Sequence record: MW250785
Strand: one strand, 5' to 3'
From: Escherichia phage UPEC03
Length of the DNA stretch: 64,000 nt
Shown piece after piece: positions 13,858-44,089 of the stretch (position 1 is the stretch's first letter; every line of letters begins with the position of its first letter). A program made the translations under genes and the position numbers. The notes under the pieces were generated by a model. The model was not told the DNA's origin. It did not search any database and saw nothing but the letters and a program-made list of their open reading frames with translations.

Positions 13858-14855
13858 TTGTAATACCCCACAACATGATCGCGGTATACGCGTTCGATGA
13901 AATCGTTCCAGAATTCGCGGTCAACTTCTTTCGGATATGTTGAAATCGCTGCAAGCCGTTCGACTTCGCCCATGACTTCTTCCAGCTTTTCCTGTACGGT
14001 TGCGAACGGTACGCCGCCAGCTTTAACCAGTTTCAGGAATGCGCTATCAGGCAGAGGATAAACGATATCACCATCTTTGTAAATCTGGATCAACTGCATA
14101 CCACCGCGCAACGCGTGACTTAAAGCCTTCCAGTCGATGCCGTTGTTGGCTTCTGCTTGTCGTGCGCGTTCTCCGTATTCATCCCAGAGTTTGTACACTG
14201 ACTTACGCATTTCATCGGCTTTGATCGTGAACTGGAATTTACGCCCCAGCACTTCATAGAAGTCCTGACAACCAGATTTCATTGTCGTGTCGGTAACGAA
14301 TCGGCAGAACTCGTTTGTAGGGAAACGATTCTTGATGTCAGACACTTTCACTTCACGCGTATAGCGTTTCATATCTGGTGTGAATTCCTGAATACCACCG
14401 ATCGTTTCGGTTTCTTTCAGTACATCGACAACTTCGCGCAGTGCAGCCAGTCGGGAACCTTTCACACCATATTTTGCGGCTTGCTTGCGAACATAACCGA
14501 ACAGGCCAGTTAGTTCAGTGGTGTAAAAACGCCAGCGGTTAGCGCGGATATACTGCCAGATTTCAGAGTTAGCGATCAGCTTGTCATCCGAAGCGTGAAG
14601 CATATCGAGCGCTACGGTATCACCATCACACGCAAGGCTGATAAACTTAGTCAGACTATACAACTGACGATCAACGTCGTCTACGGTGTTTTTAGAGCTT
14701 TTATCGCCCGTGCTGGTGTCGATAGACTTCTTCGCAGTGCCTAACAGGATTTCGCGAGGATGAGGGAGATAGATCCCTTTGTAGTCTTTATCGCTTGTTG
14801 GTGTTTCCAGTCCGTAAAGATGGGATCCAAAAATCATTTCAGTAATCATTTTCAT
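13854..14855 (-). CDS. Pol-beta superfamily nucleotidyltransferase-domain protein, function unknown
   Basis: N-terminal GSHLYGLETPTSDKDYKGIY matches the G[GS]x9-13Dx[DE] NTase signature; ATG at 14855 (listed 14870 start is TTG) overlaps HNH stop as TAATG. Confidence 0.6.
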   Translation of the reverse strand: MKMITEMIFGSHLYGLETPTSDKDYKGIYLPHPREILLGTAKKSIDTSTGDKSSKNTVDDVDRQLYSLTKFISLACDGDTVALDMLHASDDKLIANSEIWQYIRANRWRFYTTELTGLFGYVRKQAAKYGVKGSRLAALREVVDVLKETETIGGIQEFTPDMKRYTREVKVSDIKNRFPTNEFCRFVTDTTMKSGCQDFYEVLGRKFQFTIKADEMRKSVYKLWDEYGERARQAEANNGIDWKALSHALRGGMQLIQIYKDGDIVYPLPDSAFLKLVKAGGVPFATVQEKLEEVMGEVERLAAISTYPKEVDREFWNDFIERVYRDHVVGYYK

Positions 14856-15613
14856 TATACAAATCTCCAATAAAACCCTTTATGAGTTTTTCTTTTACCG
14901 TTACAGCATGAACTTACATGCCCTTTGTTATACCCCATTTCAACGGCTTCCACAATACCACCATTTAAAATAGTTTCTCTTTCTGTTTTGATACATTTCA
15001 TAATCAAAGGTTTTATCAATTCCGTCTTCTTTTGTGAAATATTAGCTAATGCAATTACATTTCTGATATCAGATTCACTCATTAAATCAGAAATCTTCTT
15101 TCTTAACCATACATAGCCTTGACTTTTGGCAAGTTTGCCGGAGCAACATTCATGAATATGACTAGGGTTAAATCCACGCAATTTCATTTCTTGCCGACCG
15201 CCTAATATGATAATCTCGTCTCCTGTTTCAAGGTTGAATCCGACAACTGGAATTATTTGCCGTTCCGACATTTTCTTTCTCGCTTCTTTCGTGAATATTG
15301 TAAGAGATTTTAATTTTCTCGCGTCGCTCATTTGCGAAGATGTCGTTTTGTATTTCTTAGTATTATGAGACATACGGAAAAAAGCATATCTCATTTTATC
15401 ACCAGCATACTTAGCAAGTAGATGATGAGCAAGATAATGCTCTTTATATGTTAAATATACTAAATTTTCGGGTTCATCAGTACCACCTAATGACTTAGCA
15501 ACGATATGGTGTATATCATAACCGCGCTTTCTATACTTTTTCGAGTAACCTTTAGGTATATCTCTTCTTTTTGCCAATGTAATTAGTTGGTCGTAAATAC
15601 GCTTATAGTTCAT
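14855..15613 (-). CDS. HNH homing endonuclease-like protein
   Basis: GYDIHHIVAKSLGGTDEPENLVYLTYKEHYLAHH HNH motif; ATG at 15613 with AAAGGAGAG SD (listed start is GTG). Confidence 0.75.
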   Translation of the reverse strand: MNYKRIYDQLITLAKRRDIPKGYSKKYRKRGYDIHHIVAKSLGGTDEPENLVYLTYKEHYLAHHLLAKYAGDKMRYAFFRMSHNTKKYKTTSSQMSDARKLKSLTIFTKEARKKMSERQIIPVVGFNLETGDEIIILGGRQEMKLRGFNPSHIHECCSGKLAKSQGYVWLRKKISDLMSESDIRNVIALANISQKKTELIKPLIMKCIKTERETILNGGIVEAVEMGYNKGHVSSCCNGKRKTHKGFYWRFV

Positions 15614-15743
15614 ACACTCTCCTTTAGGCGTATTTATCACTTAAAATCCGAACACGGTTTCCATAATCATTTTCATCAGAATTCAACCTTTAATGTTTTT
15701 GCGATCCCGCGCAATTCCGCGGTAGTAATAACAGGGATCATAA

Positions 15744-16291: not shown

Positions 16292-17348
16292 TCAGAGTCC
16301 CGTGAAAGCTACAACGATTTGATAGTGGTCATCGAAGAATTCCCCTTGTCGTTGTACGACCTCATGTAAGGGCATCCAGAACGCCTCTAACGCATCGTCA
16401 GAACCGCCCATAATGCGGGGCAGACTACCATCATTGTTAGGCTCTAACTTGATGTACTGCGCCACAGTCGGTTTTGAGAAGTGTACGGAACGCTTCGGAT
16501 GATCGAACAACATCGAATTGCGGATTGAACCACGGATAACCTTTTCAGGAACCTTGATCCGTACCTCTTCGAGCAGTTCGCGGATCGCACAATCCAGGAA
16601 CGTTTCATTTGCGTTTTTGTGTCCGCCGGGAAGGGCTAACGCGTCTTTACCTGGGGCGAACTTACGACGAATTACCAGCAGGTGATTGTTGCACACAACC
16701 ACACTATCACCCGTGCAACAGTTTAGCGCGTCGGGGTATGGGTAGTTTTTGAATTTCTCCAATTCGCTTTCCCATTTCTCGTATTCGTAGAATAAACGCC
16801 AGAACGTGTCTTCCATCATCCATTTGTCGATATAATCAACGGTTGCTTGAGGAACAAAGCGCAACAGTTTCTTATCCCACCCGTTTTTATGGTTAAAGAT
16901 AATCGGACGCAGATCGGTTGCTGATAGATCCTTGCCGTTAATCTGGACAGGTGGAACTGGTACGTGTGTCCATCCGAACGCTTTAAGCCAGTATGAACCT
17001 GCATCTTTTTCGTAACCGTAGATAGCGATTTTGTCGCCTTTGGTTTCCCTGATAGCAGTACGAACAGAGGTTTTCCATTTCTCTTCGTTGTAAAGATAAT
17101 CTGGAATGTGCTCAAACTGAACACGAACAACATCTTCGATCGGGAAGTTAGCGTTTAACCATGAGAAGATCATGGTTTGACGCTCACGCGCCGTCAGCGG
17201 GTTTAAAACGTTAGGGTAAGCATATGCTGAACCCAGAAGGATGTAAACGATCTTTGCTTCTCCGAGTGCTTTACGCACCATTGCTGCATGACCATTATGG
17301 AAGGGTTGGAATCTGCCAATTACGACAGCTTTATCAAATTGTTTCATA
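16292..17348 (-). CDS. natV: Bifunctional NMN adenylyltransferase / Nudix hydrolase (NatV-like)
   Basis: N-terminal cytidylyltransferase motif GRFQPFHNGH; C-terminal Nudix box GGHKNANETFLDCAIRELLEEV; ATG at 17348 with GGAG SD (listed start is GTG). Confidence 0.8.
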
Positions 17349-17520
17349 ACGTGCTCCACGTTTAAAGGTTAATCATAAAACAGACGCAATCACCAATACA
17401 CCAAGAAAACCGCCAATAAAGCCGAAGAATAGCGAAATGAAGATAGTAAGGATGATCTGTTTTATGTTCATTGTAGTATTCTCGTTCGGAGAAAGCCCCC
17501 GCTCTGGGGGCTTTAAACCC

Positions 17521-18447
17521 TTATTTACGAGAATCGAAAATCACTTTACCAGCGTAATCAGAACCCATGACAGTTTGAGGTACACCGCCCTGATATTTTT
17601 CCGCGATGGTCTGCTGAACATCAAGTTCTTTCCAGCGAATCATTTCTGGTGTAATGGTACGCTGCAACACGGCGTTCGCTTCGGCTTCTTTCTTAGCCGC
17701 ATACAGACGGGCATCAGCATCACGCTCGTTAGCCTGTGCAGCATTGCTACGGGCTTCTTTATCGGCAATTGCCTGAACAACTGCCTGTTGAGCGATTTGC
17801 TCTTTACGTGCCAGTTCTGCTTTCTCTGCGTTCACCTGTTCTTCACGAATTTTCGTGTTTTCAACCTGCTTCTTGATCGCTTCCGGCAGGTCGATATCCT
17901 GCAAGAATACCTGTTTCACGGTGTAACCGTAAGGGCGGGCATACTCTTCAACTTCCTGCTGGATCGCGATCTGTAGCTGGCTTTGAACTTCTGCATTATA
18001 CAGATCCTGTGCTTTCGGTACAGATTTACCGAACTCACGGACAGTTGACAGAAGTTTTTCAGTCACATATTTATCCAGCGCCTGATCCTGACTACCCGCA
18101 TTGATACGGTTGATCGGGGCTTTGCTACCATCGAACTGTAACATCACGGTCATATCCACAGTGGATTTGAATTTATCCTGGGACGGAACCTGCAATTTGT
18201 CAAACTTCATTGCGATGTCTTTGGTGTTGAACACCTCGAAATCAGCCAGTGGATTTACCAGGTGGAAACCAGGCAGAACAGGCTTCGGTGAAACTTTACC
18301 CATGAAGGTTTGAGTTTTTACCGTACCATCCTGAACGATAGTGTACGAGTTCGGAACCAGCCACAGAGCGGCGATTACGCCCAGAGCGATCAGTGTGGTT
18401 TTCTTCGGGTTGTTTACGATAGTGTTTAAGTTCATCATTATTTCCAT
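17521..18447 (-). CDS. SPFH / Band 7 (prohibitin, HflC/K-like) membrane protein
   Basis: N-terminal TM segment LIALGVIAALWLV, SPFH-like core, A/E/K/Q-rich coiled-coil C-terminus. Confidence 0.7.
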   Translation of the reverse strand: MEIMMNLNTIVNNPKKTTLIALGVIAALWLVPNSYTIVQDGTVKTQTFMGKVSPKPVLPGFHLVNPLADFEVFNTKDIAMKFDKLQVPSQDKFKSTVDMTVMLQFDGSKAPINRINAGSQDQALDKYVTEKLLSTVREFGKSVPKAQDLYNAEVQSQLQIAIQQEVEEYARPYGYTVKQVFLQDIDLPEAIKKQVENTKIREEQVNAEKAELARKEQIAQQAVVQAIADKEARSNAAQANERDADARLYAAKKEAEANAVLQRTITPEMIRWKELDVQQTIAEKYQGGVPQTVMGSDYAGKVIFDSRK

Positions 18448-19244: not shown

Positions 19245-19272
19245 GCAAAAAAGGGGCGATTCGCCCCTTATG
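19245..19272 (-). terminator. Intrinsic terminator (minus-strand orientation)
   Basis: GGGGCGAATCGCCCC followed by a T-run on the minus strand, after the stop of gene 19294-19686. Confidence 0.5.
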
Positions 19273-19716: not shown

Positions 19717-20301
19717 TTAACAGTTCAGACCAACATTATCAAGAAGTTTTTCGTGATAATGTTTGCGACAGAGCGAAACGTATTTGTCTTCGGCTCCGAT
19801 CTCAACCTGCGCCCCTTCGGTTACGAAGTTGCCTTGTGCGTCGATACGTGCAACCGTAGTTGCTTTACGCCCACAGTGACACATTCCGCGCAGTTCTCGG
19901 ATCTCGTCTGCCCAGGCCAGCAACCAGTAAGAACCCTCGAACAGATTCAACTGAAAATCAGTACGCAGACCGTAAGCCATTACAGGGATTTCGAGTTCAT
20001 CAACAACGCGACATAGATCGAAAACGTTTTTCTTCGAAAGGAATTGCGCCTCGTCAACGAAGATGCAAGCAATTTTATTCCGGCGCTGAATGTCCCAGAA
20101 CAGATCCATATCAGGCGCAATCAATTCACACTTTTCGTTCAGCCCGATACGCGAACTCACTGTGTTTGATGTGCGGGTGTCGATTGCTGGCTTATAGATT
20201 ACAACTCGCATACCGCGCTCTTTGTAATTGTGCGCGTCCGTCAATAGTCGCGCACTTTTGCCAGCGTTCATGGATGCATAGTGATAATACAATTTAGCCA
20301 T
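19717..20301 (-). CDS. tk: Thymidine kinase
   Basis: MAKLYYHYASMNAGKSARLL (P-loop), VDEAQFL, C-terminal zinc ribbon CHCGRKAT...CRKHY; ATG at 20301 with GGAG SD; the listed ORF carries a 39-codon upstream extension. Confidence 0.9.
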   Translation of the reverse strand: MAKLYYHYASMNAGKSARLLTDAHNYKERGMRVVIYKPAIDTRTSNTVSSRIGLNEKCELIAPDMDLFWDIQRRNKIACIFVDEAQFLSKKNVFDLCRVVDELEIPVMAYGLRTDFQLNLFEGSYWLLAWADEIRELRGMCHCGRKATTVARIDAQGNFVTEGAQVEIGAEDKYVSLCRKHYHEKLLDNVGLNC

Positions 20302-20575
20302 TGACACGCTCCACAAACTTAATATGATTCTGGAATTTGCCCTCACCTTCATGGTTTTTGCATGTTTTGTTTGAACAGTATATCCACCAATCCCACTCGT
20401 CGTAAGGGGGTTTGTCAATGTTCATGACGCAAATCAAAGGAAAATGACAATCCCGACAACGAACTTTTTCTATAATGTGTGCGTTAGCCAATTGAAAACC
20501 ATCCTTTACCCATGAGTTTTTCATTATGTCGCGCAAGATGCTCTTTGATTTCCGGTATCTGGATAGCAATATCAT
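20294..20575 (-). CDS. Hypothetical Cys-rich protein (start uncertain)
   Basis: Overlaps tk start by 8 nt and the upstream ORF by about 90 nt; CRDCHF...CSNKTC cysteines. Confidence 0.35.
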   Translation of the reverse strand: MILLSRYRKSKSILRDIMKNSWVKDGFQLANAHIIEKVRCRDCHFPLICVMNIDKPPYDEWDWWIYCSNKTCKNHEGEGKFQNHIKFVERVNG

Positions 20576-20699
20576 ACTCTTCTTTCGTCATAGTATGATT
20601 TGCGCAACCCATACACCCGCACACCTGCGCGTTACACCAACGGAGTGTTCCGTATGTCGCAATCACCTTCATTGCTTTAGCTTTGATTTTGTCAGTCAT
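20484..20699 (-). CDS. Hypothetical Cys-rich protein (71 aa)
   Basis: CNAQVCGCMGCANH cluster; overlaps downstream ORF in another frame. Confidence 0.35.
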   Translation of the reverse strand: MTDKIKAKAMKVIATYGTLRWCNAQVCGCMGCANHTMTKEEYDIAIQIPEIKEHLARHNEKLMGKGWFSIG

Positions 20700-20904
20700 G
20701 ATTAGCTCGCTCCACCGCTACCGCATCACGAACAGCATCGGTGATTTCATTTTCAACGAAATCCAGGATATCCGCTGTAATATCGTCGATACAGGATTGA
20801 TTGTAGTTACGTGAATCAGGATCATCATCTTCGGCATAATCCTGATACGCTTCGCCCAGTTGTTTCAGCTTGTGTTTTAACAGCTTTTGTTCTTGCGGTC
20901 TCAT
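20692..20904 (-). CDS. Hypothetical acidic protein (70 aa)
   Basis: Coupled ORF downstream of macrodomain gene. Confidence 0.4.
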   Translation of the reverse strand: MRPQEQKLLKHKLKQLGEAYQDYAEDDDPDSRNYNQSCIDDITADILDFVENEITDAVRDAVAVERANHD

Positions 20905-21398
20905 GATAAATCCGCCTTATGTGGATCAACCGATGGATCGAAGTGAACAACGATGATTGGATAATCACCCGTACACTCGTCGATAATGGCGCTAATACGC
21001 AACCAATCGCCACCAGCAAGCCCCGCACCGATAAGAGGGGTAATGATAGGCAATTTTTCAGGAAACGCACTGGCGCGTTCTACGGCGCTCACAAAGCATG
21101 ATCGGATTGCGTCATAATCCACTTGCGGGCCAGTACCCCAGAATTTAAACTGAGTGTAGGCATTGAAGACAATCTGACCTTCTTCCGTCATGTAGATGGA
21201 GTTAGTGCCTAACTTACGCTGGTCTCCTTTCATCGTCAATGCATCAATTTTGAACGCACCAGGGATTTTGTGCTTCACTTCTTTAGCAATACCCGCACCC
21301 ATGTTGCAATAACAGTTACACCCATGAATCAAGTGTACTTTTCGTTTCAGGAACAACTCTACAGCGTTCCCTTTGATTTCTTTAATAATCATTTTCAT
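20901..21398 (-). CDS. Macrodomain protein, TARG1/DarG-like (putative ADP-ribosyl hydrolase)
   Basis: HLIHGCNCYCNMGAGIA and PLIGAGLAGGDW resemble the TARG1 (C6orf130)/DarG macrodomain motifs; ATG at 21398. Confidence 0.65.
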   Translation of the reverse strand: MKMIIKEIKGNAVELFLKRKVHLIHGCNCYCNMGAGIAKEVKHKIPGAFKIDALTMKGDQRKLGTNSIYMTEEGQIVFNAYTQFKFWGTGPQVDYDAIRSCFVSAVERASAFPEKLPIITPLIGAGLAGGDWLRISAIIDECTGDYPIIVVHFDPSVDPHKADLS

Positions 21399-21622
21399 CA
21401 CCTGTATAGTGGCGGTAAGCCAGCACAGCCAGCCCCGCGATCACAACAATAACACACATTAAGATATAACCTGTGTTCATTTAAATTGGTCATCCCATCT
21501 TTGCCACGCTTCCAACTCGTCATCATATACAGGGAACGAGCTTTCGTTTGGCTTTTTAACGTAATACCAGATAATGATTGCAGCAGCAATCACACACCCA
21601 TAAAAGATCACTAATCCCAACA

Positions 21623-21943
21623 TCAGTATAATCCTATACCAGCGTTATATTCTTCAACCAGGTAAGTACGGAGTTTTTCACAACGTTCCTTATTTGGCGC
21701 TTTGGTGCAGAGGTTCATCATCGGTTCAGACTGCAAAAACTCACGCTGTTTAACCAGCTTCTGACGCTTGAAGAGGTGCGCATTTTCTTCGCCCCATACA
21801 TAAGCCGCGTCCAGTTGTTCAGCGATTACCTGTTCACATACCGCAACGTCTTTAATGTCACGATTATTGCAGAGTTCAGCCAGTCGATCATCAGCATGAG
21901 CAAAGCCAGCAAACAGAGTGAGTAACAGCGCAAGTTTTTTCAT
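21623..21943 (-). CDS. Secreted/periplasmic Cys-containing protein (106 aa)
   Basis: Signal peptide MKKLALLLTLFAGFAHA; four Cys in the mature part. Confidence 0.5.
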   Translation of the reverse strand: MKKLALLLTLFAGFAHADDRLAELCNNRDIKDVAVCEQVIAEQLDAAYVWGEENAHLFKRQKLVKQREFLQSEPMMNLCTKAPNKERCEKLRTYLVEEYNAGIGLY

Positions 21944-22970: not shown

Positions 22971-23037
22971 AATTTAATCCTCAATAGTTGGTACACACAT
23001 AATAAAAAAGCCCCTGCGAAAATGCAAGGGCTTTTTA
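22971..23037 (-). promoter_or_regulatory. Terminator-promoter module (copy 3 of 6, variant -10)
   Basis: Minus strand AAAAAGCCC-TTGCAT-N17-TATTAT; hairpin 23005-23036. Confidence 0.4.
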
Positions 23038-23685
23038 TCAGATAATGCGTTTTTCTTCTAACAGCTTCGCGGTATGGTTAACCATGCGAGCATAATCACG
23101 GGCTTCTTTCTTTGAATACTTGAACCCCGCGTTGTAACTCGCCAGCGCCTTTTTCAAGTCGCCTTTGTGGTAATCAAGCCAGTATTCCAGTTCGTGAAGT
23201 GCGTACTTGGAACCACCCCGAAGGGTTTCGAGCTTATTGATTACTACGCGTTTGGAATATGATTTATCCATTCGTGCGGACGCGCTACGGGCTGTTACTT
23301 GAAAACAACCATAAGCATGATGATTCTTTTTGCCTTTCCCTACGTTCTCACATGCGCGAGACTCGATCCAGGCAATAGCCGCTAAATGATATCCCAAACG
23401 TTTCGATGTTTCCGATTCAACTGGCTTTGCAGTTTTGAGATCGTATTCGTTACCGATCCTGAAAGCGTACTCCAAAACCTTTTTCTGCTTTGGTGTAATA
23501 TCATCCAATTCCTTAACATAGCTGAGGGCATTGGCTGGCGCTTTCTTCATTACTGTTGCTTGTTGTAGCGGTAAAGTTGACTTCACAGAAGGGAGTGTTT
23601 GGATAAACTCTCCTAACGGATCAGTCGCCGCGTTGCCAGAAAAAGAGCATAAGAAAATGCTGGCAGCAAAGATAATTTTCTTCAT
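23038..23685 (-). CDS. Lytic transglycosylase (SLT domain) with signal peptide
   Basis: MKKIIFAASIFLCSFSGNA signal; SLT motifs AIAWIESR, YGCFQV, YNAG; ATG at 23685 (listed start is TTG). Confidence 0.75.
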   Translation of the reverse strand: MKKIIFAASIFLCSFSGNAATDPLGEFIQTLPSVKSTLPLQQATVMKKAPANALSYVKELDDITPKQKKVLEYAFRIGNEYDLKTAKPVESETSKRLGYHLAAIAWIESRACENVGKGKKNHHAYGCFQVTARSASARMDKSYSKRVVINKLETLRGGSKYALHELEYWLDYHKGDLKKALASYNAGFKYSKKEARDYARMVNHTAKLLEEKRII

Positions 23686-23736
23686 TGTAATACCTATTTG
23701 TAACAAGAGAGGGCTATGATACCCTCGTCTTATTAT

Positions 23737-26068: not shown

Positions 26069-26593
26069 TTATGTGGTTTCGTTAAAAAATGTGCCGAAAA
26101 CCTCTTTCGCTTTCCGGTCATAAACGGCTTTTGCTTCTTCTGGAGTGGTATAATACCCCAAAAATTTTCTTTTTCCATCTATGTTTATCTGCGCTTTATA
26201 CTTCCCATTTGCTTTGTGATAAGAAACACCTTTCAACCCCGTACTGCTGTTTGAATTACATTTCTTTTTCATCGCGTTTTGTTGGTTCGTCGCTTTCTGT
26301 AGATTTCTTGCTGTATCTCCATTTTCAACACCATACACATGATCTACGATAGGAGGAAGATAACCATTCTCAACGTAAAACACTATTCGGTGTCGCAAAT
26401 ACATAGAACCTTTAAAATGAATTTGGGAATACTCGTTCTTGCTTCCGGCTTCACTTCCAGGAGACATAGGGCCGCGCTGAATTTTCCAATACACTTTTCC
26501 CGTAGATGTATCAACATCTACATAACTCAGAAGAGACTCAATCCCTTGAATCTCTTCCTGTATGGTTCTTGATGAATAACCATGACTTTTCAT
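26069..26593 (-). CDS. HNH endonuclease with AP2-like domain (paralog of 11917-12453)
   Basis: MKSHGYSSRTIQEEIQGIESLL... parallels the other HNH-AP2 protein; AP2-like LKGVSYHKANGKYKAQINIDGKRKFLGYY; ATG at 26593 overlaps upstream stop by 1 nt. Confidence 0.7.
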   Translation of the reverse strand: MKSHGYSSRTIQEEIQGIESLLSYVDVDTSTGKVYWKIQRGPMSPGSEAGSKNEYSQIHFKGSMYLRHRIVFYVENGYLPPIVDHVYGVENGDTARNLQKATNQQNAMKKKCNSNSSTGLKGVSYHKANGKYKAQINIDGKRKFLGYYTTPEEAKAVYDRKAKEVFGTFFNETT

Positions 26594-27063
26594 TACATAC
26601 CCAAACGGATAATATGGATATATGGGAACGGGTGAAGATGACTTGAACGCATACACAAGGTCAGTGTTTTTGCCAGTTCAAACCGTTCGTCGATCGTCAT
26701 GTCGCATTCATCGAAAATCAGGTTGATTGCCTGATACTTGATCGTTTGTCCACGGAAAATGGTATTCAGATCTTGACGTTTCGACAGAATGAAAGACGAA
26801 TCAGCGCCCTTATCCATTCCATGTTCTGCCGCAGCACAAATACCCATTTGCTTTGTCGGCGCAACGTAGATATTCAGTGTCCCTTTCGACTGCTTGATGA
26901 TATCGAAAGCCGCTTTGGTTTTACCCGACATCCGGCCCATATCCAGCGCAGTTTCGAAAATAGACACACCGCCGCATTCTTGCCCCCAACGCCCATCAAT
27001 GATTCGCGCAAGGTGCAGGTTACGTGACTGCTTTACAGCGTCAACATAGAATTGTGAAATCAT
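26593..27063 (-). CDS. Hypothetical P-loop-like protein (156 aa)
   Basis: Deviant Walker A-like GRMSGKT and Walker B-like LIFDECD; directly upstream of the HNH gene. Confidence 0.4.
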   Translation of the reverse strand: MISQFYVDAVKQSRNLHLARIIDGRWGQECGGVSIFETALDMGRMSGKTKAAFDIIKQSKGTLNIYVAPTKQMGICAAAEHGMDKGADSSFILSKRQDLNTIFRGQTIKYQAINLIFDECDMTIDERFELAKTLTLCMRSSHLHPFPYIHIIRLGM

Positions 27064-30084: not shown

Positions 30085-30377
30085 CAGAATGTGATCTCCG
30101 CAAACTGCATTCTACGCTCAATCGCATGGATAGCGTTATCACGCTGTTCTTTGTTTTCATATCCAGCCCAGGTAATCGGAGTTGAACAGATCAGGTGAAA
30201 AGTGATTGCTGGGTGTCTCTTCCCTTCAACAACGATTGTTGCATCATCTTCGATCCAGGTTACGTGATCCAGATTCACCGGATAGTTTCTTACGGTAACA
30301 GTTTCACCAACCATAGGCGACACGTCCAGAATATCACGATCACGAACGTATGATTTAATACGAGATACGATTAACAT
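30084..30377 (-). CDS. Hypothetical protein (97 aa)
   Basis: 1-nt overlap with the upstream large gene. Confidence 0.45.
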   Translation of the reverse strand: MLIVSRIKSYVRDRDILDVSPMVGETVTVRNYPVNLDHVTWIEDDATIVVEGKRHPAITFHLICSTPITWAGYENKEQRDNAIHAIERRMQFAEITF

Positions 30378-31531
30378 TATTTCAACTCCACTGCATATAC
30401 ATCGGTTTCAGGGGCTTTGTGTACGCGCATATCTTTACCACATACCGCATAAGCCGGACAGTTACGGCAACCGTTATGATCCTTGTTGCCCGTCAGTTCT
30501 TTACGGAACTGTTTTGTTTTCGGGTGTTCCCAGATATCCTTCACAAAATCTTCGGCTTCCAGAACATCCAGACCTTCTTCCCAGCCACCTTCAACCCAAC
30601 GTTCGGTAAACGAGCAAGGGAAGAACTGACCACGTTCATTAATGTAAGAGCTAAACATCGTCGCTTCACAGTCTTCGGCGTATTGCTTGTACTGTTCGAA
30701 GTTCGGGTGTCCCTCCATCGCTTCAACGAAAGCGGGGGCTGAACAGCTATCGAATCCAAATCCTACACCAGAATCGAGGCAATATTCAACAAGTTTTTTA
30801 TATTGTTCGCGGGTAACGGTGTCCCAGTTCTTACCGCGTCCTTTTTGTTTCAGTCCCAGGAACACGATCGCGTTGACTTGTTTCAGGCGCGGATCATTCT
30901 TCACGGCATCAACCACGTTAAACGCATCATCATAGGTTTTCGAGCTAACCATGAAGTGAAGGTTGATTTGCTGTTGTCCGGCTTCTGTCAGGTTCGCTAC
31001 TGAGTCGAAAGCGACATCAAAACCAGCGTGTTTATAAACCGATACCGCAACAGCCCCAGCAACCGCCGCTAAACGCGCTGCAACGTCTTTTGATACGTCA
31101 GCAATGGTAAGGTTCGGTACAATGCCTTTAGAACGCGCATACGCCATCATATCGAACATATCAGGGTTTGTTTGCCCCTGTGCATCAGCACCGAGTGCGC
31201 ATTGAGTCAGCCAGGGCATTTTGTCGATGATTTTTTTGAAGTTGGCAAGATCCATGTTGAACCCGTTAGGGTTATTGGACTTGTAGCAGAACCCGCAGAG
31301 TTTACCAGCGGGACCATTACATTTGGTAGTGATCTCAACATCCAAGATTTCTGGGAATGGGGCATAGGTAGGATCAGTTTCGAACGATGTTCCCCAGCGA
31401 GCAAACTCACCAGTTTTAACGTTGAAATTGTAGTTGTACCAATTAGAGCGAGCGAAGCGCATATTACCCTGCTGGTAAATCATTAGCGAAGGGGCTTTCA
31501 TTACAGTCTGTGCGCGGTCAATAATATCCAT
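30377..31531 (-). CDS. Cys-rich protein, radical-SAM/SPASM-like (tentative; non-canonical Cx7CxFC)
   Basis: N-terminal CNGPAGKLCGFCY (aromatic residue before the third Cys); C-terminal CRNCPAYAVCG cluster; 384 aa. Confidence 0.4.
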   Translation of the reverse strand: MDIIDRAQTVMKAPSLMIYQQGNMRFARSNWYNYNFNVKTGEFARWGTSFETDPTYAPFPEILDVEITTKCNGPAGKLCGFCYKSNNPNGFNMDLANFKKIIDKMPWLTQCALGADAQGQTNPDMFDMMAYARSKGIVPNLTIADVSKDVAARLAAVAGAVAVSVYKHAGFDVAFDSVANLTEAGQQQINLHFMVSSKTYDDAFNVVDAVKNDPRLKQVNAIVFLGLKQKGRGKNWDTVTREQYKKLVEYCLDSGVGFGFDSCSAPAFVEAMEGHPNFEQYKQYAEDCEATMFSSYINERGQFFPCSFTERWVEGGWEEGLDVLEAEDFVKDIWEHPKTKQFRKELTGNKDHNGCRNCPAYAVCGKDMRVHKAPETDVYAVELK

Positions 31532-34196: not shown

Positions 34197-34505
34197 TTAA
34201 TCGAATTTTTCTGGCAACTGGTCTACAAGTGCTTGAGTTTGATGAAGTTCTTCACTCAATTTATCACGATAATGAACCAATTCGCGGGTTCTTGATGCGG
34301 AATAGCTAATGAGTTTATCAGCGGTAGCGGTGTAACCGTAACCAGCACACGCGATTTCCAGTTTTGCGTTATCGCCGTTAGGTACGCGGATATGAGCATA
34401 CGCCAGCAAGTTTTTAACCGCTTGCAACAGTTCATGATCTTCTTTGCCGATGATAAACTGGTTTGGTTCTGCTGAATCCATATACAGTTCTTCGTCTTTG
34501 TTCAT
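34197..34505 (-). CDS. Hypothetical protein (102 aa)
   Basis: ORF with ATG start. Confidence 0.45.
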   Translation of the reverse strand: MNKDEELYMDSAEPNQFIIGKEDHELLQAVKNLLAYAHIRVPNGDNAKLEIACAGYGYTATADKLISYSASRTRELVHYRDKLSEELHQTQALVDQLPEKFD

Positions 34506-35035
34506 TTTGCAGCCTTATACATTTCCAGGACGCGGTTCATGTGATCTTGAGATTGAGGCACACCCGCGAAGTTCAGTTTGATGAAGAATTCCAGACGATC
34601 CTTTTTGGTGCATTCATCCAGCCCCAGGGCAGGTAATGAAATGTTTTCAAAGGCTCGTTGTTCGTGTCGTGGTATTTCGTCCCAGAACAAACGGGAACCG
34701 TCCGGCATAGGAATCCCAATTTCACCTTCGTAGACTTTGATAATCGTCGTCAGGCGTTGTTTGCCGTCGATCACTTCTACCCAATGGGTTTCGTTGAACT
34801 GACTATCAACCGCGATCGCAATGATACCGCAAGGGAAACCACTGATCAGGGTAGTCAGAAACGCATCTTGCTCTTTCTGCGTCCACACATAGGGGCGCTG
34901 GTAAGATGGATTCAGATCCAGATCTTTATTCTTCCACCAATGCAGATAACTCCCAACCATGATCGCGTGATCGCGACTGCGAAAAGTTAACTGATCGCGG
35001 ATACGGTTATGAACCGGAATATCATCTTTAGACAT
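34502..35035 (-). CDS. DUF262 / ParB-like (GmrSD N-terminal-type) domain protein
   Basis: YQRPYVWTQKEQDAFLTTLISGFPCGIIAI and VIDGKQRLTTI (DGQQR-like) signatures; 177 aa, no nuclease domain attached. Confidence 0.65.
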   Translation of the reverse strand: MSKDDIPVHNRIRDQLTFRSRDHAIMVGSYLHWWKNKDLDLNPSYQRPYVWTQKEQDAFLTTLISGFPCGIIAIAVDSQFNETHWVEVIDGKQRLTTIIKVYEGEIGIPMPDGSRLFWDEIPRHEQRAFENISLPALGLDECTKKDRLEFFIKLNFAGVPQSQDHMNRVLEMYKAAK

Positions 35036-35625: not shown

Positions 35626-36008
35626 TTAGGCAATGCCCCGAAAGACAGCAGCCCCATACGATGATCGTTATCTGATTCACCAGTGCTGAATTCAAATTCT
35701 TCACCGCTGATACTGATAGCGCGGAAACCGTCTTTCAGGTATGGCAACAGATACAGAGGGATCAGCATCATGTTTGAATCGTCGCTCCACTTACGGAAGC
35801 CCAGATTTTTCATTTCTTCCAGCGTCAAATCATTCGGATCGACGGGTTCGAAATCAGGGGAAGCGTAAAGGCGTCCAGGCAGATCGCGAATATTTTTCAC
35901 GGTGAATGAATCACCCCAGGACTGATACACGGTAGGTTCAGCGGCGCGGGTTGCGGTAGCCAGGAGGATCATTTGACAGATTTGAAAAGTTGTTGCTTTT
36001 GGTTTCAT
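35622..36008 (-). CDS. Secreted protein (128 aa)
   Basis: Signal-peptide-like N-terminus ICQMILLATATRAA. Confidence 0.45.
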   Translation of the reverse strand: MKPKATTFQICQMILLATATRAAEPTVYQSWGDSFTVKNIRDLPGRLYASPDFEPVDPNDLTLEEMKNLGFRKWSDDSNMMLIPLYLLPYLKDGFRAISISGEEFEFSTGESDNDHRMGLLSFGALPK

Positions 36009-36418
36009 GATGTATATCCCACAAGTTTAGTCAGTAAATTCCCCATAGTCTTACGCGCATGATCGCGGATCTGGCTATACGGAACATATTTGAAGTCATC
36101 CATTTCAGTAATGGTTCGACCATTTTTAACGAAGGTTGAAGCACAAACACATTTTTCTGCTTCGGGGTAATTATTACCCACATATACGAATAACACAAGC
36201 TCTTTTTTACTCGTATAATCAATCAGACCCAGGCTCAACAGTTCGTGTTGTTCAACTACAACGCCCGTTTCCTCGAAGCATTCACGGATAGCAGCATTGA
36301 TCGGGGATTCGCCTTTTTCGATATGCCCCTTTGGGATGTCCCAATGAGGCGTTTCGGTTGCGTGGCCCATTAAAACGCTGCCGTTATTCAGGAAGAGAAT
36401 ACCAGCAGACCGTTCCAT
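36005..36418 (-). CDS. Nudix hydrolase
   Basis: Nudix box GHIEKGESPINAAIRECFEETGV. Confidence 0.75.
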   Translation of the reverse strand: MERSAGILFLNNGSVLMGHATETPHWDIPKGHIEKGESPINAAIRECFEETGVVVEQHELLSLGLIDYTSKKELVLFVYVGNNYPEAEKCVCASTFVKNGRTITEMDDFKYVPYSQIRDHARKTMGNLLTKLVGYTS

Positions 36419-38830: not shown

Positions 38831-39454
38831 TCACCCATTATGTTTGAAGTATTCGATCTGACGCAGACGTTTTTCTGCTGCCTCTTTCGAATCATATTCA
38901 CCAAGTTCTTTCGTGCGATCATGGTTCAGCACAACCCACTTATCGCCGCGATGTTCGATGTGCTCCGTGATGTCTTCAACTTTCTTATCAAGATCCAGCG
39001 GTTCAGCATCTTCCTCGATAATAGTCAAATCTACGGGCAGTGTCAACAGTCTTTTAACTCCGCTGATATCTTCGATGCGGGAATCATATGCGAGCGTTAC
39101 GTGTGGTTTGTAATCGTCATAATCGTATGTTGCTCCAGCATCCATTGCATCTTTGAAGCGGCTATGGAGATAATCAGATTCCAGAACGCCCACGATCGTA
39201 TTACCGTATTTCGTTTCCCACTTCTCCACGTCAACCAGTCGGGCAGGTTCAGAGATACCGGAGGCAGGGAACAGATCAACCGTCTTACGGCTATACACAA
39301 TCGTTGTATGCAGTTTTGCAGCGGAAACAGGATTCTCTACACCCAGAAGTTTTTGCACCTTCGCGAGCGCTTCACAGGAAGCCTGATCGAACTTCGCACA
39401 CATATAGATCCCCGGATCAACTACGGGTTTCGCTACTTCAATAAAACTTTTCAT
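38831..39454 (-). CDS. 2H phosphoesterase-like protein, candidate Acb1 (anti-CBASS) homolog with C-terminal extension
   Basis: Two H-x-T motifs (LHTTIVYS, PHVTLAYD) typical of the 2H/LigT fold; next to gp57A-like and gp1 genes, as 57B is next to gene 1 in T4. Confidence 0.5.
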   Translation of the reverse strand: MKSFIEVAKPVVDPGIYMCAKFDQASCEALAKVQKLLGVENPVSAAKLHTTIVYSRKTVDLFPASGISEPARLVDVEKWETKYGNTIVGVLESDYLHSRFKDAMDAGATYDYDDYKPHVTLAYDSRIEDISGVKRLLTLPVDLTIIEEDAEPLDLDKKVEDITEHIEHRGDKWVVLNHDRTKELGEYDSKEAAEKRLRQIEYFKHNG

Positions 39455-39782: not shown

Positions 39783-40451
39783 TTACACTCTTAAAAGATT
39801 GAATACATTAAGCACGTTGCGTTTCAAATCGTCTAACGTACCATTATTTAGGATTGTATAATCACTCAAGCCAGGTGTCAAACCTTTCTCCGTTGAATGA
39901 TTATCTTCAATACCAGTTTCACGTTCAAGGAACACAAAGCGAGTCCCGAACTTGCTCAGGTATTTATATTCGTGCGGTTGACGCACATCGGTAATGATAA
40001 AGTGATCCGCGTAGGATTTCAACATTTTTTGAAGCGCAATTGAAGTCCAGATAGACGGATCTACTTTACAAACAATATCAGTCCCGAACACCTGCATCAA
40101 ACGGCGAATCGTCCAGGGCTGGGTGTTTTCTTCGCAAATTTTATGAGCGATAACATCTGCGTTACTCATGAAGAACCCGCGAGAACTTAATTTTTTGATA
40201 CCGCTAGAAAACAGCGTGTATGCATCGTTATTGGACATCACCAGCGGGGCTTCACGATCACCCTCATAGAATGGGTTCTTCGCTGCCAGCGCTCGCAATT
40301 GCGTGTTATCGTGATGTTCCATAGAACGTTTCAGGATAGCTTTGATTTCGTCGGCTAACGCGATAACTTCAACATTGCGGAAGTTATGCACAACCATTTG
40401 AGCAACGGTATCTTTACCCGTTCGCTTTTTACCACAAATACCATAAATCAT
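39783..40451 (-). CDS. 1: Deoxynucleoside monophosphate kinase
   Basis: P-loop GICGKKRTGKDT; IRRLMQVFGTD, TDVRQPHE and HSTEKGL parallel T4 gp1 motifs. Confidence 0.85.
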   Translation of the reverse strand: MIYGICGKKRTGKDTVAQMVVHNFRNVEVIALADEIKAILKRSMEHHDNTQLRALAAKNPFYEGDREAPLVMSNNDAYTLFSSGIKKLSSRGFFMSNADVIAHKICEENTQPWTIRRLMQVFGTDIVCKVDPSIWTSIALQKMLKSYADHFIITDVRQPHEYKYLSKFGTRFVFLERETGIEDNHSTEKGLTPGLSDYTILNNGTLDDLKRNVLNVFNLLRV

Positions 40452-42953: not shown

Positions 42954-43421
42954 TTATTGCCCTTTCCATCCGAACACACGTTTCAATGTGTCCTCTGTGA
43001 TGATCTTGAACTCCCAGCCCTTTTGTTTTGCTGCTGCATTCGCGGCTTTCCATTTGTCAATGTTTACTGCATACGTATACAGTGCATCAACGAATTTCTT
43101 TTTGTTGTGAACGTTGTTGTTCGCTGGCTTAGGTGGGGGCAACGTTTCTTTCATCGGTTTGACTTCCCAAAGGTAGGTCACTCCATTATCCATTTCGACA
43201 TAGAAATCCATGAAGTAACGCCGTCGCTTTCCGTCTGCGTTGCTGAAATAAGGGATCACAACGCATTCTGAATTCCACCTCTTTACGTGGGGATTTCGGT
43301 CTAACCAATTCATTATATATTTTTCCCATGAAGAACGATATGTTATTTTTCTGGGATCTCCTTTATACTTTTCTATCTGTTGTGGCATAAAGGAACCTTT
43401 GTATGTCTGTCTTCCAGTCAT
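42954..43421 (-). CDS. Head completion protein (gp4-like)
   Basis: 155 aa (T4 gp4 about 150 aa); position between gp2-like gene and the 53/5 block. Confidence 0.45.
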   Translation of the reverse strand: MTGRQTYKGSFMPQQIEKYKGDPRKITYRSSWEKYIMNWLDRNPHVKRWNSECVVIPYFSNADGKRRRYFMDFYVEMDNGVTYLWEVKPMKETLPPPKPANNNVHNKKKFVDALYTYAVNIDKWKAANAAAKQKGWEFKIITEDTLKRVFGWKGQ

Positions 43422-44089
43422 TATTTCACCTTACAATTATCAAAATGCCACCTATACATTGCTCTGGGGTTTCCTTCTTTTCCGCAATGTGGACATATTA
43501 CAGGTTTCGTGTTTTTAGCTGAGTCGCGCATCTTTTGTTTTGCTTCTTCGCTAATAATTCTTCCTGTTAACGAAGCGCTAAGGTTATCTCTATGCTCTTT
43601 AGAACGGTTTGACGCAACTCTACTCATTTTTTGTTTGAATTCATCACTTCTCTTTATTCCGGTCATCCCTTCGGAAATACTTTTCTTGTGTGCTTCTGAT
43701 AGCGGTTTCCCTTTTATTGATTCTCGTCTTTTTCGTTTCCAATCATCGCTACGTGGTGGGTGTTTAGTCCCTATAGAATTGATTCGATTTTGTTCGGCTA
43801 CTTTCTCTCTGATCCATCCGTAAGTTCGAGAAGTCATTCTTCCAGAATGAAATCTTGATGCCATTGACATCATCTTACACGCGTATATAAGTTTTCCGTT
43901 TGTTGGGTACATTTTGACGAGTAGTTGATGGGCGAGATAGTGTTCTTCGGCAGTGAGACAAACGATATTTTCGGGTTCGTCCATTCCTCCCATACACCGA
44001 GGGATGATGTGATGGTTTTCTGAATACCCGCTTATAGTTCTTGATTGTGCTCTTTTGATAAGAAGTTCATAGTGTTTGCGGTAATTCAT
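43421..44089 (-). CDS. HNH homing endonuclease-like protein with basic repeats and C-terminal zinc ribbon
   Basis: HHIIPRCMGGMDEPENIVCLTAEEHYLAHQ; C-terminal CPHCG...C; AT-rich; sits between gp4-like and gp53. Confidence 0.75.
   Translation of the reverse strand: MNYRKHYELLIKRAQSRTISGYSENHHIIPRCMGGMDEPENIVCLTAEEHYLAHQLLVKMYPTNGKLIYACKMMSMASRFHSGRMTSRTYGWIREKVAEQNRINSIGTKHPPRSDDWKRKRRESIKGKPLSEAHKKSISEGMTGIKRSDEFKQKMSRVASNRSKEHRDNLSASLTGRIISEEAKQKMRDSAKNTKPVICPHCGKEGNPRAMYRWHFDNCKVK

Follow-up and report, generated by a model that had tools for sequence, protein, structure and literature searches.

A glutamine-type macrodomain of Escherichia phage UPEC03, ortholog of T4 Tk.4 (AdfM) and probable guardian of phage DNA against DarT2-type toxins

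What does a solitary macrodomain gene do for a T4-like phage, and on which ADP-ribosylated molecule would its product act? The question is raised by a 64,000-nucleotide stretch of Escherichia phage UPEC03 (sequence record MW250785; hereafter the window), in which such a gene (hereafter the macro gene, its product the window protein) occupies positions 20901-21398. A preliminary description had placed an open reading frame (ORF) of 165 amino acids (aa) at these positions, which is borne out, without naming its strand, which is minus. It had also proposed a TARG1/DarG-like macrodomain with a counter-defence role against DarT or other ADP-ribosylating systems, an idea that gains support from orthology to T4 Tk.4 and the published T4 phenotype. 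The best explanation, with a probability of about 0.6, is that the macro gene encodes the ortholog of T4 Tk.4 (AdfM), an orphan hydrolase of the ALC1/TARG1 class most likely guarding phage DNA from DarT2-type toxins. Fold, family, orthology, active-site residues and purifying selection were established in the present analysis. The anti-DarTG2 function itself has already been described: work on relatives appeared in 2025-2026, that on the T4 ortholog in 2025. What sequence comparison adds here is that T4-type AdfM is of a Gln type and not of the DarG type, and that AdfM of T4 and Adpp of Vibrio phage Gary constitute one family.

The ORF list and the translation give 165 codons plus a stop. Both motifs quoted in the preliminary description are present in the translation letter for letter, HLIHGCNCYCNMGAGIA as residues 22-38 and PLIGAGLAGGDW as residues 121-132, and the motifs HCISEDCRMGAGIA and PRIGCGLDRLQW with which they had been compared are genuine TARG1 sequence according to Protein Data Bank (PDB) alignments. 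The gene and its principal elements are the following.

20901..21398, minus strand: macro gene, ortholog of T4 tk.4/adfM (ORF, Pfam Macro, PHROG 335, AlphaFold2, reciprocal match with T4 Tk.4, dN/dS).
21313..21324, minus strand: codons of H25-G26-C27-N28, predicted N-terminal ADP-ribose-binding/catalytic loop (family-invariant; numbered from ATG 21398).
21150..21152, minus strand: codon of Q83, in the column of DarG Lys80, TARG1 Lys84 and SCO6735 Gln85 (profile and MAFFT alignments).
21003..21038, minus strand: codons of P121-LIGAGLAGGD-W132, predicted diphosphate-binding loop (alignments; A128 in the column of TARG1 D125).

The resemblance to TARG1 is far above chance. The Pfam Macro profile (PF01661), whose gathering threshold is 22 bits, matches at 27.6 bits over profile positions 1-113 of 118, and PHROG 335 matches at 5e-60. 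An AlphaFold2 model built from a family alignment of 34 sequences reached a predicted local distance difference test score of 93.1 and a predicted template modelling (TM) score of 0.90. When this model was compared with the PDB by Foldseek, TARG1 ranked first (E 1.3e-9, TM 0.70/0.81), followed by BT1257, Poa1p, DarG and SCO6735. In the search of the family profile against PDB sequences the order was BT1257 (3.6e-17), SCO6735 (3e-15), TARG1 (1.2e-10), DarG (about 2e-10) and Poa1p (1e-9). The model has the alpha/beta macro fold with both the G-x-G loop and the diphosphate-binding loop, and the structural and profile searches, a kind of check that the preliminary description had suggested, both rank macrodomains first. 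The nearest structural neighbours belong to the ALC1/TARG1-like class and not to the MacroD, PARG, macroH2A or viral-nsp3 types. The window protein is thus a macrodomain of the ALC1/TARG1-like class, within which BT1257 and SCO6735 are nearest.

A tblastn search of phage genomes found the macro family in 2945 of 50,697 records. In T4 the match is gene tk.4 (36% identity, 93% coverage, E 4e-21), and when T4 Tk.4 is the query, only one place in the window matches significantly, 21392-20934 (1e-25). The position of the gene agrees. T4 has the order rI.-1, rI, tk, tk.1-3, tk.4, vs, vs.1, regB, and the window read together with an annotated relative has a rI.-1 homolog, rI, tk, small ORFs, macro, small ORFs and vs, with two genes serving as synteny anchors.

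19717..20352, minus strand: thymidine kinase (tk), downstream anchor (Pfam TK 1.8e-49; T4 map).
21623..21943, minus strand: vs-like valyl-tRNA synthetase modifier, upstream anchor (annotation in phi1_146002 and other relatives).

The upstream anchor is identified through these relatives; tblastn of T4 Vs against the window at E < 1e-3 gave no direct match to it. The slot between tk and vs also holds a macro homolog in Gelderlandvirus and Tulanevirus, the counterpart in phage Lw1 (75% identical) was labelled 'Tk.4' by its depositors, and a crude neighbour-joining tree without bootstrap places the window protein among syntenic Straboviridae copies, that of T4 included. By reciprocal best match and common genomic slot, the macro gene is identified as the tk.4 ortholog. 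It is under purifying selection, the ratio of nonsynonymous to synonymous substitution rates (dN/dS) being 0.17 against Lw1 (dS 0.90).

This orthology ties the macro gene to a published phenotype. In the HIDEN-SEQ preprint (10.1101/2025.11.20.689424), growth of a T4 transposon library on a DarTG2 host gave tk.4 as the sole significant gene. The same work reports that a clean tk.4 deletion makes T4 sensitive to DarTG2 and calls the gene product AdfM, short for anti-DarT factor Macrodomain (10.1101/2025.11.20.689424). Since T4 lacking both AdfA and the NADAR enzyme AdfN had remained DarTG2-resistant (PMC11825919), a gap existed which the tk.4/AdfM finding fills.

Within the same tk-vs slot, Salmonella phage STML-198 (Gelderlandvirus; locus L013, 3001-3472) has its macro homolog in two tblastn pieces, and only the C-terminal 315 nucleotides (nt) are annotated as a coding sequence (CDS). 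This copy may be frameshifted or decaying.

The active site is where the window protein departs from DarG and TARG1. The decisive column was read in an HMMER profile alignment to TARG1 and in two MAFFT alignments, all agreeing, across 26 family members. Q83 fills the position of the catalytic Lys (DarG K80, TARG1 K84), and Gln is found there in 26/26 members including T4 Tk.4, whereas DarG, TARG1 and PhiKZ gp104 have Lys ('FPTKDNW'; FPTKxxW in DarG and PhiKZ). A128 occupies the column of TARG1 D125. Besides Q83, the residues H25, N28, D52, K62, N79 and Y81 and the G-x-G loops are invariant in the family. The loops H25-G-C-N28 and G124-A-G-L-A-G-G-D-W132 match the SCO6735-type H-x-C-N and G-x-G-L-A-G-G-x-W loops. 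Indeed, SCO6735 of Streptomyces coelicolor (PDB 5E3B) and BT1257 of Bacteroides thetaiotaomicron (2AFC/2FG1), both 26-29% identical to the window protein, have its active-site pattern of Gln, Ala and H-x-C-N loop (H24-V25-C26-N27 in SCO6735). SCO6735 works without the Lys and Asp residues, and its Q85A and Q85E variants are inactive (PMC9411070). It efficiently cleaves thymidine-linked but not guanosine-linked ADP-ribosylated DNA and rescues cells from DarT (PMC9411070). In later work, thymine- and uracil-linked ADP-ribose was cleaved only by TARG1-like macrodomains, SCO6735 included.

Two of the invariant residues, Asp52 and Lys62 (motif aDxxTxxGDxxKLG), are present in 26/26 Tk.4/Adpp members and absent from SCO6735, BT1257 and DarG. 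They set the phage/orphan family apart and might touch a phosphate or the backbone of DNA.

A mechanism can be proposed on this basis. DarT2 places ADP-ribose on N3 of thymine in single-stranded DNA and blocks replication. The macrodomain would hold the ADP-ribose through H25-x-C-N28, G34-x-G36 and the diphosphate loop P121...G124-x-G126...W132, and would cut the C1''-N glycosidic bond, which would yield free ADP-ribose and intact thymine. Without a catalytic Lys, Gln83 would support SCO6735-type catalysis, in which the substrate is positioned in a Gln-dependent manner and a water-mediated step follows. That the window protein has the same substrate and role as its relatives is suggested by the T4 knockout phenotype and by the biochemistry of SCO6735.

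In vitro, a second phage protein also named AdfM, gp104 of PhiKZ (2026 Cell Reports), frees an oligonucleotide of the ADP-ribose attached by DarT2, and it also rescues cells from this toxin (PMC13309987). Its N23A variant, altered in the loop that corresponds to H25-G26-C27-N28, has lowered activity (PMC13309987). Because of the Lys versus Gln in the catalytic column and the scores with DarG models given below, PhiKZ AdfM is regarded as a true DarG-type protein and T4 AdfM as Gln-type, and the two as independent recruitments of different subclasses. Overall charge was considered as a means of telling DNA-directed from metabolite-directed enzymes and discarded as uninformative, PhiKZ AdfM, which acts on DNA, having an isoelectric point of 5.05 and the window protein one of 6.9.

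The family has, however, a second described activity. NARP1 operons consist of Adps and Namat, and about 15% of 859 of them include the Macro protein Adpp (10.64898/2026.01.28.702374). Purified Adpp of Vibrio phage Gary (KNV71_gp137) converts ADP-ribose-1''-phosphate (ADPR-1''P), the product of RES-domain aRES defence, to ADP-ribose (ADPR), from which NARP1 can rebuild NAD+, and the Adps-Adpp-Namat operon overcomes aRES (10.64898/2026.01.28.702374). The layout of the Gary operon was confirmed, Adpp being encoded between Adps and Namat. Gary Adpp matches PHROG 335, has every invariant residue of the window protein, the Gln included, and finds its best PDB sequence matches in TARG1 and SCO6735, not in Poa1p. 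Macro genes were also found beside or between genes annotated as 'ribose-phosphate pyrophosphokinase' (Adps-like) and 'nicotinamide phosphoribosyltransferase' (Namat-like) in Acinetobacter phage KissB, the T5-like Vibrio phage VPG01 and the Pseudomonas Pakpunavirus EM.

L007 467-3971, L008 2635-5646, L009 1273-3480 and L011 2129-5159: NARP1-AP arrangement in four phages of three unrelated lineages.

The NARP1-linked copies are scattered over the family tree and form no single clade. Q26/G82 of Gary Adpp correspond to G26/T82 in the window protein and T4; this pair was tried as a marker of NARP1-linked versus tk-vs copies and rejected as not diagnostic, the NARP1-linked KissB copy being G/T. 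These alignments unite T4 AdfM and Gary Adpp in one family whose active-site signature is the same in both, so the sequence by itself cannot tell which activity the window protein has.

Several results accordingly weigh against assigning the window protein the role of T4 AdfM. Its identity to T4 Tk.4 is only 36% (4e-30), and it is equally similar to Gary Adpp (38.2%, 2e-28), which has the same active-site signature. Removal of ADP-ribose from DNA by T4 AdfM was itself inferred by the authors of the preprint (10.1101/2025.11.20.689424). In three bacterial contexts inspected, no family member has DarT for a neighbour. The DarG equivalog model NF048014 of NCBIfam gives 23.9 bits against a cutoff of 250 and the PADLOC DarG model 30.5 bits against 132.9 for PhiKZ gp104 (24-31 bits over the curated models as a whole, 133-138 for gp104), and the catalytic Lys of DarG is missing from the Q83 column of the MAFFT alignments. 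Early or middle expression is suggested only by the T4-like position and the flanking terminators, no promoter having been found: a sigma-70 scan gave no minus-strand promoter near the macro gene (and 11 sites overall, fewer than the 17.6 in shuffles), and the T4 MotA-box middle-promoter pattern had 1 match versus 1.76 expected.

The curated-model scores, the missing Lys, the absence of the C-terminal DarT-binding domain (the window protein is a single domain of 163-165 aa, against 338 DarG-model positions) and the absence of a darT or ADP-ribosyltransferase (ART) gene among the neighbours in the window, which are small ORFs, tk and vs, rule out membership in DarG. The term TARG1/DarG-like used at the outset therefore holds for the fold and the class and fails for the catalytic residues, which are of SCO6735 type (Q83, A128). 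Judged from its sequence, the window protein is not a member of the DarG or TARG1 family and plausibly does the same job by a Gln-type route.

The alternatives concern the substrate and, in one case, whether catalysis is needed at all. That the window protein is primarily an Adpp/Poa1p-like phosphatase, turning aRES-made ADPR-1''P into ADPR that is thereby detoxified or recycled to NAD+, is unlikely but constitutes the main rival: Gary Adpp is a demonstrated ADPR-1''P phosphatase of the same family and as close to the window protein as T4 Tk.4, family members adjoin or lie among Adps/Namat-type genes in three phage lineages unrelated to one another, 'A1pp phosphatase' is a long-standing annotation, and the sources of the cloned aRES systems, Klebsiella, Enterobacter and E. 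coli, correspond to the hosts of this phage group. Yet Adpp is useful as a feeder of NARP1, and no Adps, Namat or Nampt homolog was found in the 64-kb window; the phage group has NatV-type and NadV-type (NARP2-type) genes instead. The macro gene adjoins no NAD gene but sits at the tk.4 position, and T4 keeps the ortholog and shows the DarTG2 phenotype; to our knowledge, T4 has no NARP pathway. Moreover, with Macro genes in only about 15% of the 859 NARP1 operons and the family in 2945 phage records, most family members are not NARP1-linked. A NARP2-type pathway, which uses phosphoribosyl pyrophosphate (PRPP) and not ADPR, is in addition reported to cancel aRES alone (10.64898/2026.01.28.702374). 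The AdfM role is favoured because the macro gene is the positional tk.4 ortholog in a window with no Adps, Namat or Nampt, because NARP2-type genes occur in the phage group, and because the family extends far beyond NARP1-AP.

It is hardly to be expected that the window protein erases ADP-ribose from proteins, whether marks of the phage Alt/ModA/ModB type or host-imposed ones. T4 Alt/Mod enzymes modify arginine, and we know of no cleavage of arginine-ADP-ribose by macrodomains of the ALC1/TARG1-like class; there is no ART gene near the macro gene in the window, and the T4 ortholog has no reported phenotype other than DarTG2 sensitivity. What keeps the idea in consideration is that ADP-ribose linked to Glu/Asp of proteins is a further substrate of TARG1 and SCO6735 (PMC9411070) and that T4-like phages encode ADP-ribosyltransferases, as mentioned in PMC9503650. 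A weak match to the ThsA Macro domain (PF20016, 16.2 bits) and the name 'O-acetyl-ADP-ribose deacetylase' given to homologs by some sources would speak for a sponge or degrading enzyme of soluble ADPR-derived signals or metabolites, such as the cyclic-ADPR isomers of Thoeris or O-acetyl-ADPR, but this is very improbable. Equally improbable is stoichiometric inhibition, in which DarT would be countered mainly by binding of the toxin: although the dead mutants SCO6735 Q85A, DarG K80A and TARG1 K84A inhibit DarT in vitro, SCO6735 most strongly (PMC9411070), the window protein has no C-terminal DarT-binding domain of the DarG kind, and the invariance of the catalytic-site residues in 26 diverse members together with purifying selection argues for retained enzymology.

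A further reading overlaps with the AdfM role: it is possible, if on balance doubtful, that the PHROG 335 core, with T4 Tk.4/AdfM, Gary Adpp and the window protein, is one dual-purpose C1''-hydrolase. If so, the same site would strip ADP-ribose from DNA thymine (DarTG2) and the 1''-phosphate from ADPR-1''P (RES/aRES NAD+ phosphorylases), and the two names of the 2025-2026 preprints would denote one enzyme in two assays. The released ADPR would pass through Nudix domains (NatV, NudE) to ribose-5-phosphate and PRPP and on into the NARP2-type NAD+ pathway.

The start of the macro gene and its local layout involve the following features.

21398..21402, minus strand: GGTGA, Shine-Dalgarno-like, read off the sequence, 5 nt upstream of ATG 21392.
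21382..21480, minus strand: small hydrophobic ORF of 32 aa whose end overlaps the macro start (sequence; CDS in the close relative phi1_146002).
20692..20904, minus strand: downstream gene of 70 aa whose ATG overlaps the macro stop as ATGA (sequence, relative's annotation).
23005..23036, minus strand: strong terminator-like hairpin with a 13-bp stem (6 GC pairs) and T-run, upstream unit boundary (hairpin scan).
19251..19269, minus strand: terminator-like hairpin, downstream unit boundary (hairpin scan).

The true start is probably ATG 21392, the third codon of the ORF, with a product of 163 aa, because GGTGA (21402-21398) lies 5 nt before it and because close homologs and T4 Tk.4 begin in the family alignment with 'MII/MIV', the equivalent of M3. 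ATG 21398 has practically no spacer after GGTGA, and a GTG one codon 5' of it is an alternative start. At the other end, the stop TGA (20903-20901) shares the ATGA with the ATG of the next gene. The overlapping, tightly packed ORFs suggest co-transcription of the macro gene with the 32-aa upstream ORF, and translational coupling. The two hairpins (23036-23005 and 19269-19251) probably flank one transcription unit that contains the macro gene. The plus-strand ORFs overlapping the locus (20919-21101, 20986-21117 and 21270-21452) are short and unsupported, and were dismissed as spurious. The upstream hairpin lies directly 3' of an SLT-domain vs.1 homolog (23038-23706); TATTAT follows it directly, and the stem itself contains TTGCAT 17 nt upstream, a pair below the scan threshold, so that terminator and promoter could overlap here.

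The macro region is 99.6% identical in Enterobacter phage CYPEBC003 and 98.7-99.1% identical in Cronobacter phages JC03 and GAP161, and matches many T4-like (Straboviridae) phages of Klebsiella, Enterobacter, Cronobacter and Citrobacter. The preliminary description had set the macro gene in the same early block as NatV, Nudix and Acb1-like genes, for which the window offers these candidates.

16292-17359, minus strand: NatV-type bifunctional gene with cytidylyltransferase-like N-terminus and NUDIX C-terminus (domain matches).
36005-36418, minus strand: NudE homolog (39% identity to T4 NudE, 9e-19; PHROG 'nudix hydrolase'; homology).
38831-39454, minus strand: 207-aa protein of PHROG 755 ('RNA ligase', 2H-type; profile match), about 17 kb from the macro gene.

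The NatV-type and NudE-like genes are thus present, and the Acb1/2H candidate is a possible one. The gene at 38831-39454 is probably the 'Acb1-like' gene meant; it sits just before a homolog of dNMP kinase (gene 1) at 39783-40451, the slot of T4 57B/Acb1. The common block holds only loosely, the NatV-type gene ending about 3.5 kb downstream and the other two lying at the positions listed. NadV itself was not found in the 64-kb window, but the sister phage PF-CE2 has a NadV-type phosphoribosyltransferase (H177), which together with the NatV-type gene suggests a NARP2-type NAD+ synthesis pathway in the phage group. T4 NudE is annotated as active on ADP-ribose, and its homolog in the window could use up ADPR released by the macrodomain.

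Other genes of the window, all on the minus strand, deserve mention. A 177-aa protein (34502-35035) matches the DUF262 N-terminal domain of the GmrSD restriction endonuclease (Pfam GmrSD_N 6.9e-20), an odd piece in a T4-like phage given that modified phage DNA is the target of GmrSD restriction. The protein could serve as decoy, inhibitor or nuclease. Three homing-endonuclease-like genes stand among conserved T4-like genes, at 14855-15640 (I-HmuI NUMOD-like), 26069-26656 (AP2 and HNH) and 43421-44089 (PHROG 655 homing endonuclease), and such insertions probably explain indels between related phages. The minus-strand non-structural region further encodes a 384-aa SPASM iron-sulfur domain protein (30377-31531), annotated as Fe-S oxidoreductase in relatives, and a 308-aa SPFH/Band-7 membrane protein (17521-18447).

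In bacteria, homologs of 45-50% identity are standalone genes without a DarT neighbour. A chromosomal homolog in Undibacterium sp. KW1 (L003, 5066-7203), 43% identical to the window protein, shows translational coupling to a gene of the ADP_ribosyl_GH (ARH/DraG) type; an Imm33-like immunity gene comes after the pair, and there is no DarT nearby. This locus may combine two erasers in one immunity module directed at ADP-ribosylating toxins.

If the AdfM role is correct, T4-like phages of Enterobacter, Cronobacter and Klebsiella are predicted to carry the anti-DarTG2 eraser of T4. With the family in about 6% of sequenced phage genomes (2945/50,697), this would be relevant to host-range prediction and to the choice of therapeutic phages. 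T4-type AdfM should use the poorly understood Gln-dependent mechanism of SCO6735. The overlap of AdfM and Adpp advises caution against naming by homology alone and makes a direct cross-assay worthwhile.

Among known systems, yeast Poa1p (PDB 6LFQ), an ADPR-1''P phosphatase, is a weaker sequence match to the family than BT1257, SCO6735 and TARG1. Human TARG1/OARD1 (PDB 4J5S), the top Foldseek match, is 24% identical to the window protein and has the motifs of the preliminary description in common with it; it cleaves thymine-ADP-ribose with a K84/D125 dyad that corresponds to Q83/A128. DarG (T. aquaticus 5M31/5M3E, M. tuberculosis 5M3I) is of the Lys type, has in addition a DarT-binding domain at its C-terminus and is encoded beside its cognate DarT. 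SCO6735 is closer in its active site, but A35 of the window protein stands in the column of its DNA-contacting K34, and no Lys is conserved at the position of its DNA-contacting K89. Its gene is chromosomal and belongs to the stress response, not to phage counter-defence. T4 Tk.4 (155 aa versus 163-165 aa) and the window protein both have HGCN, KLG, YTQ and GAG..W, with G/N in T4 at the positions of A128/D131 in the diphosphate loop; the two phages belong to different Straboviridae genera, that of the window infecting Enterobacter, Cronobacter and Klebsiella. Set beside PhiKZ, these comparisons imply that two mechanistically different macro subclasses would have been recruited against DarT2, a Lys-type one in PhiKZ and a Gln-type one in T4-like phages.

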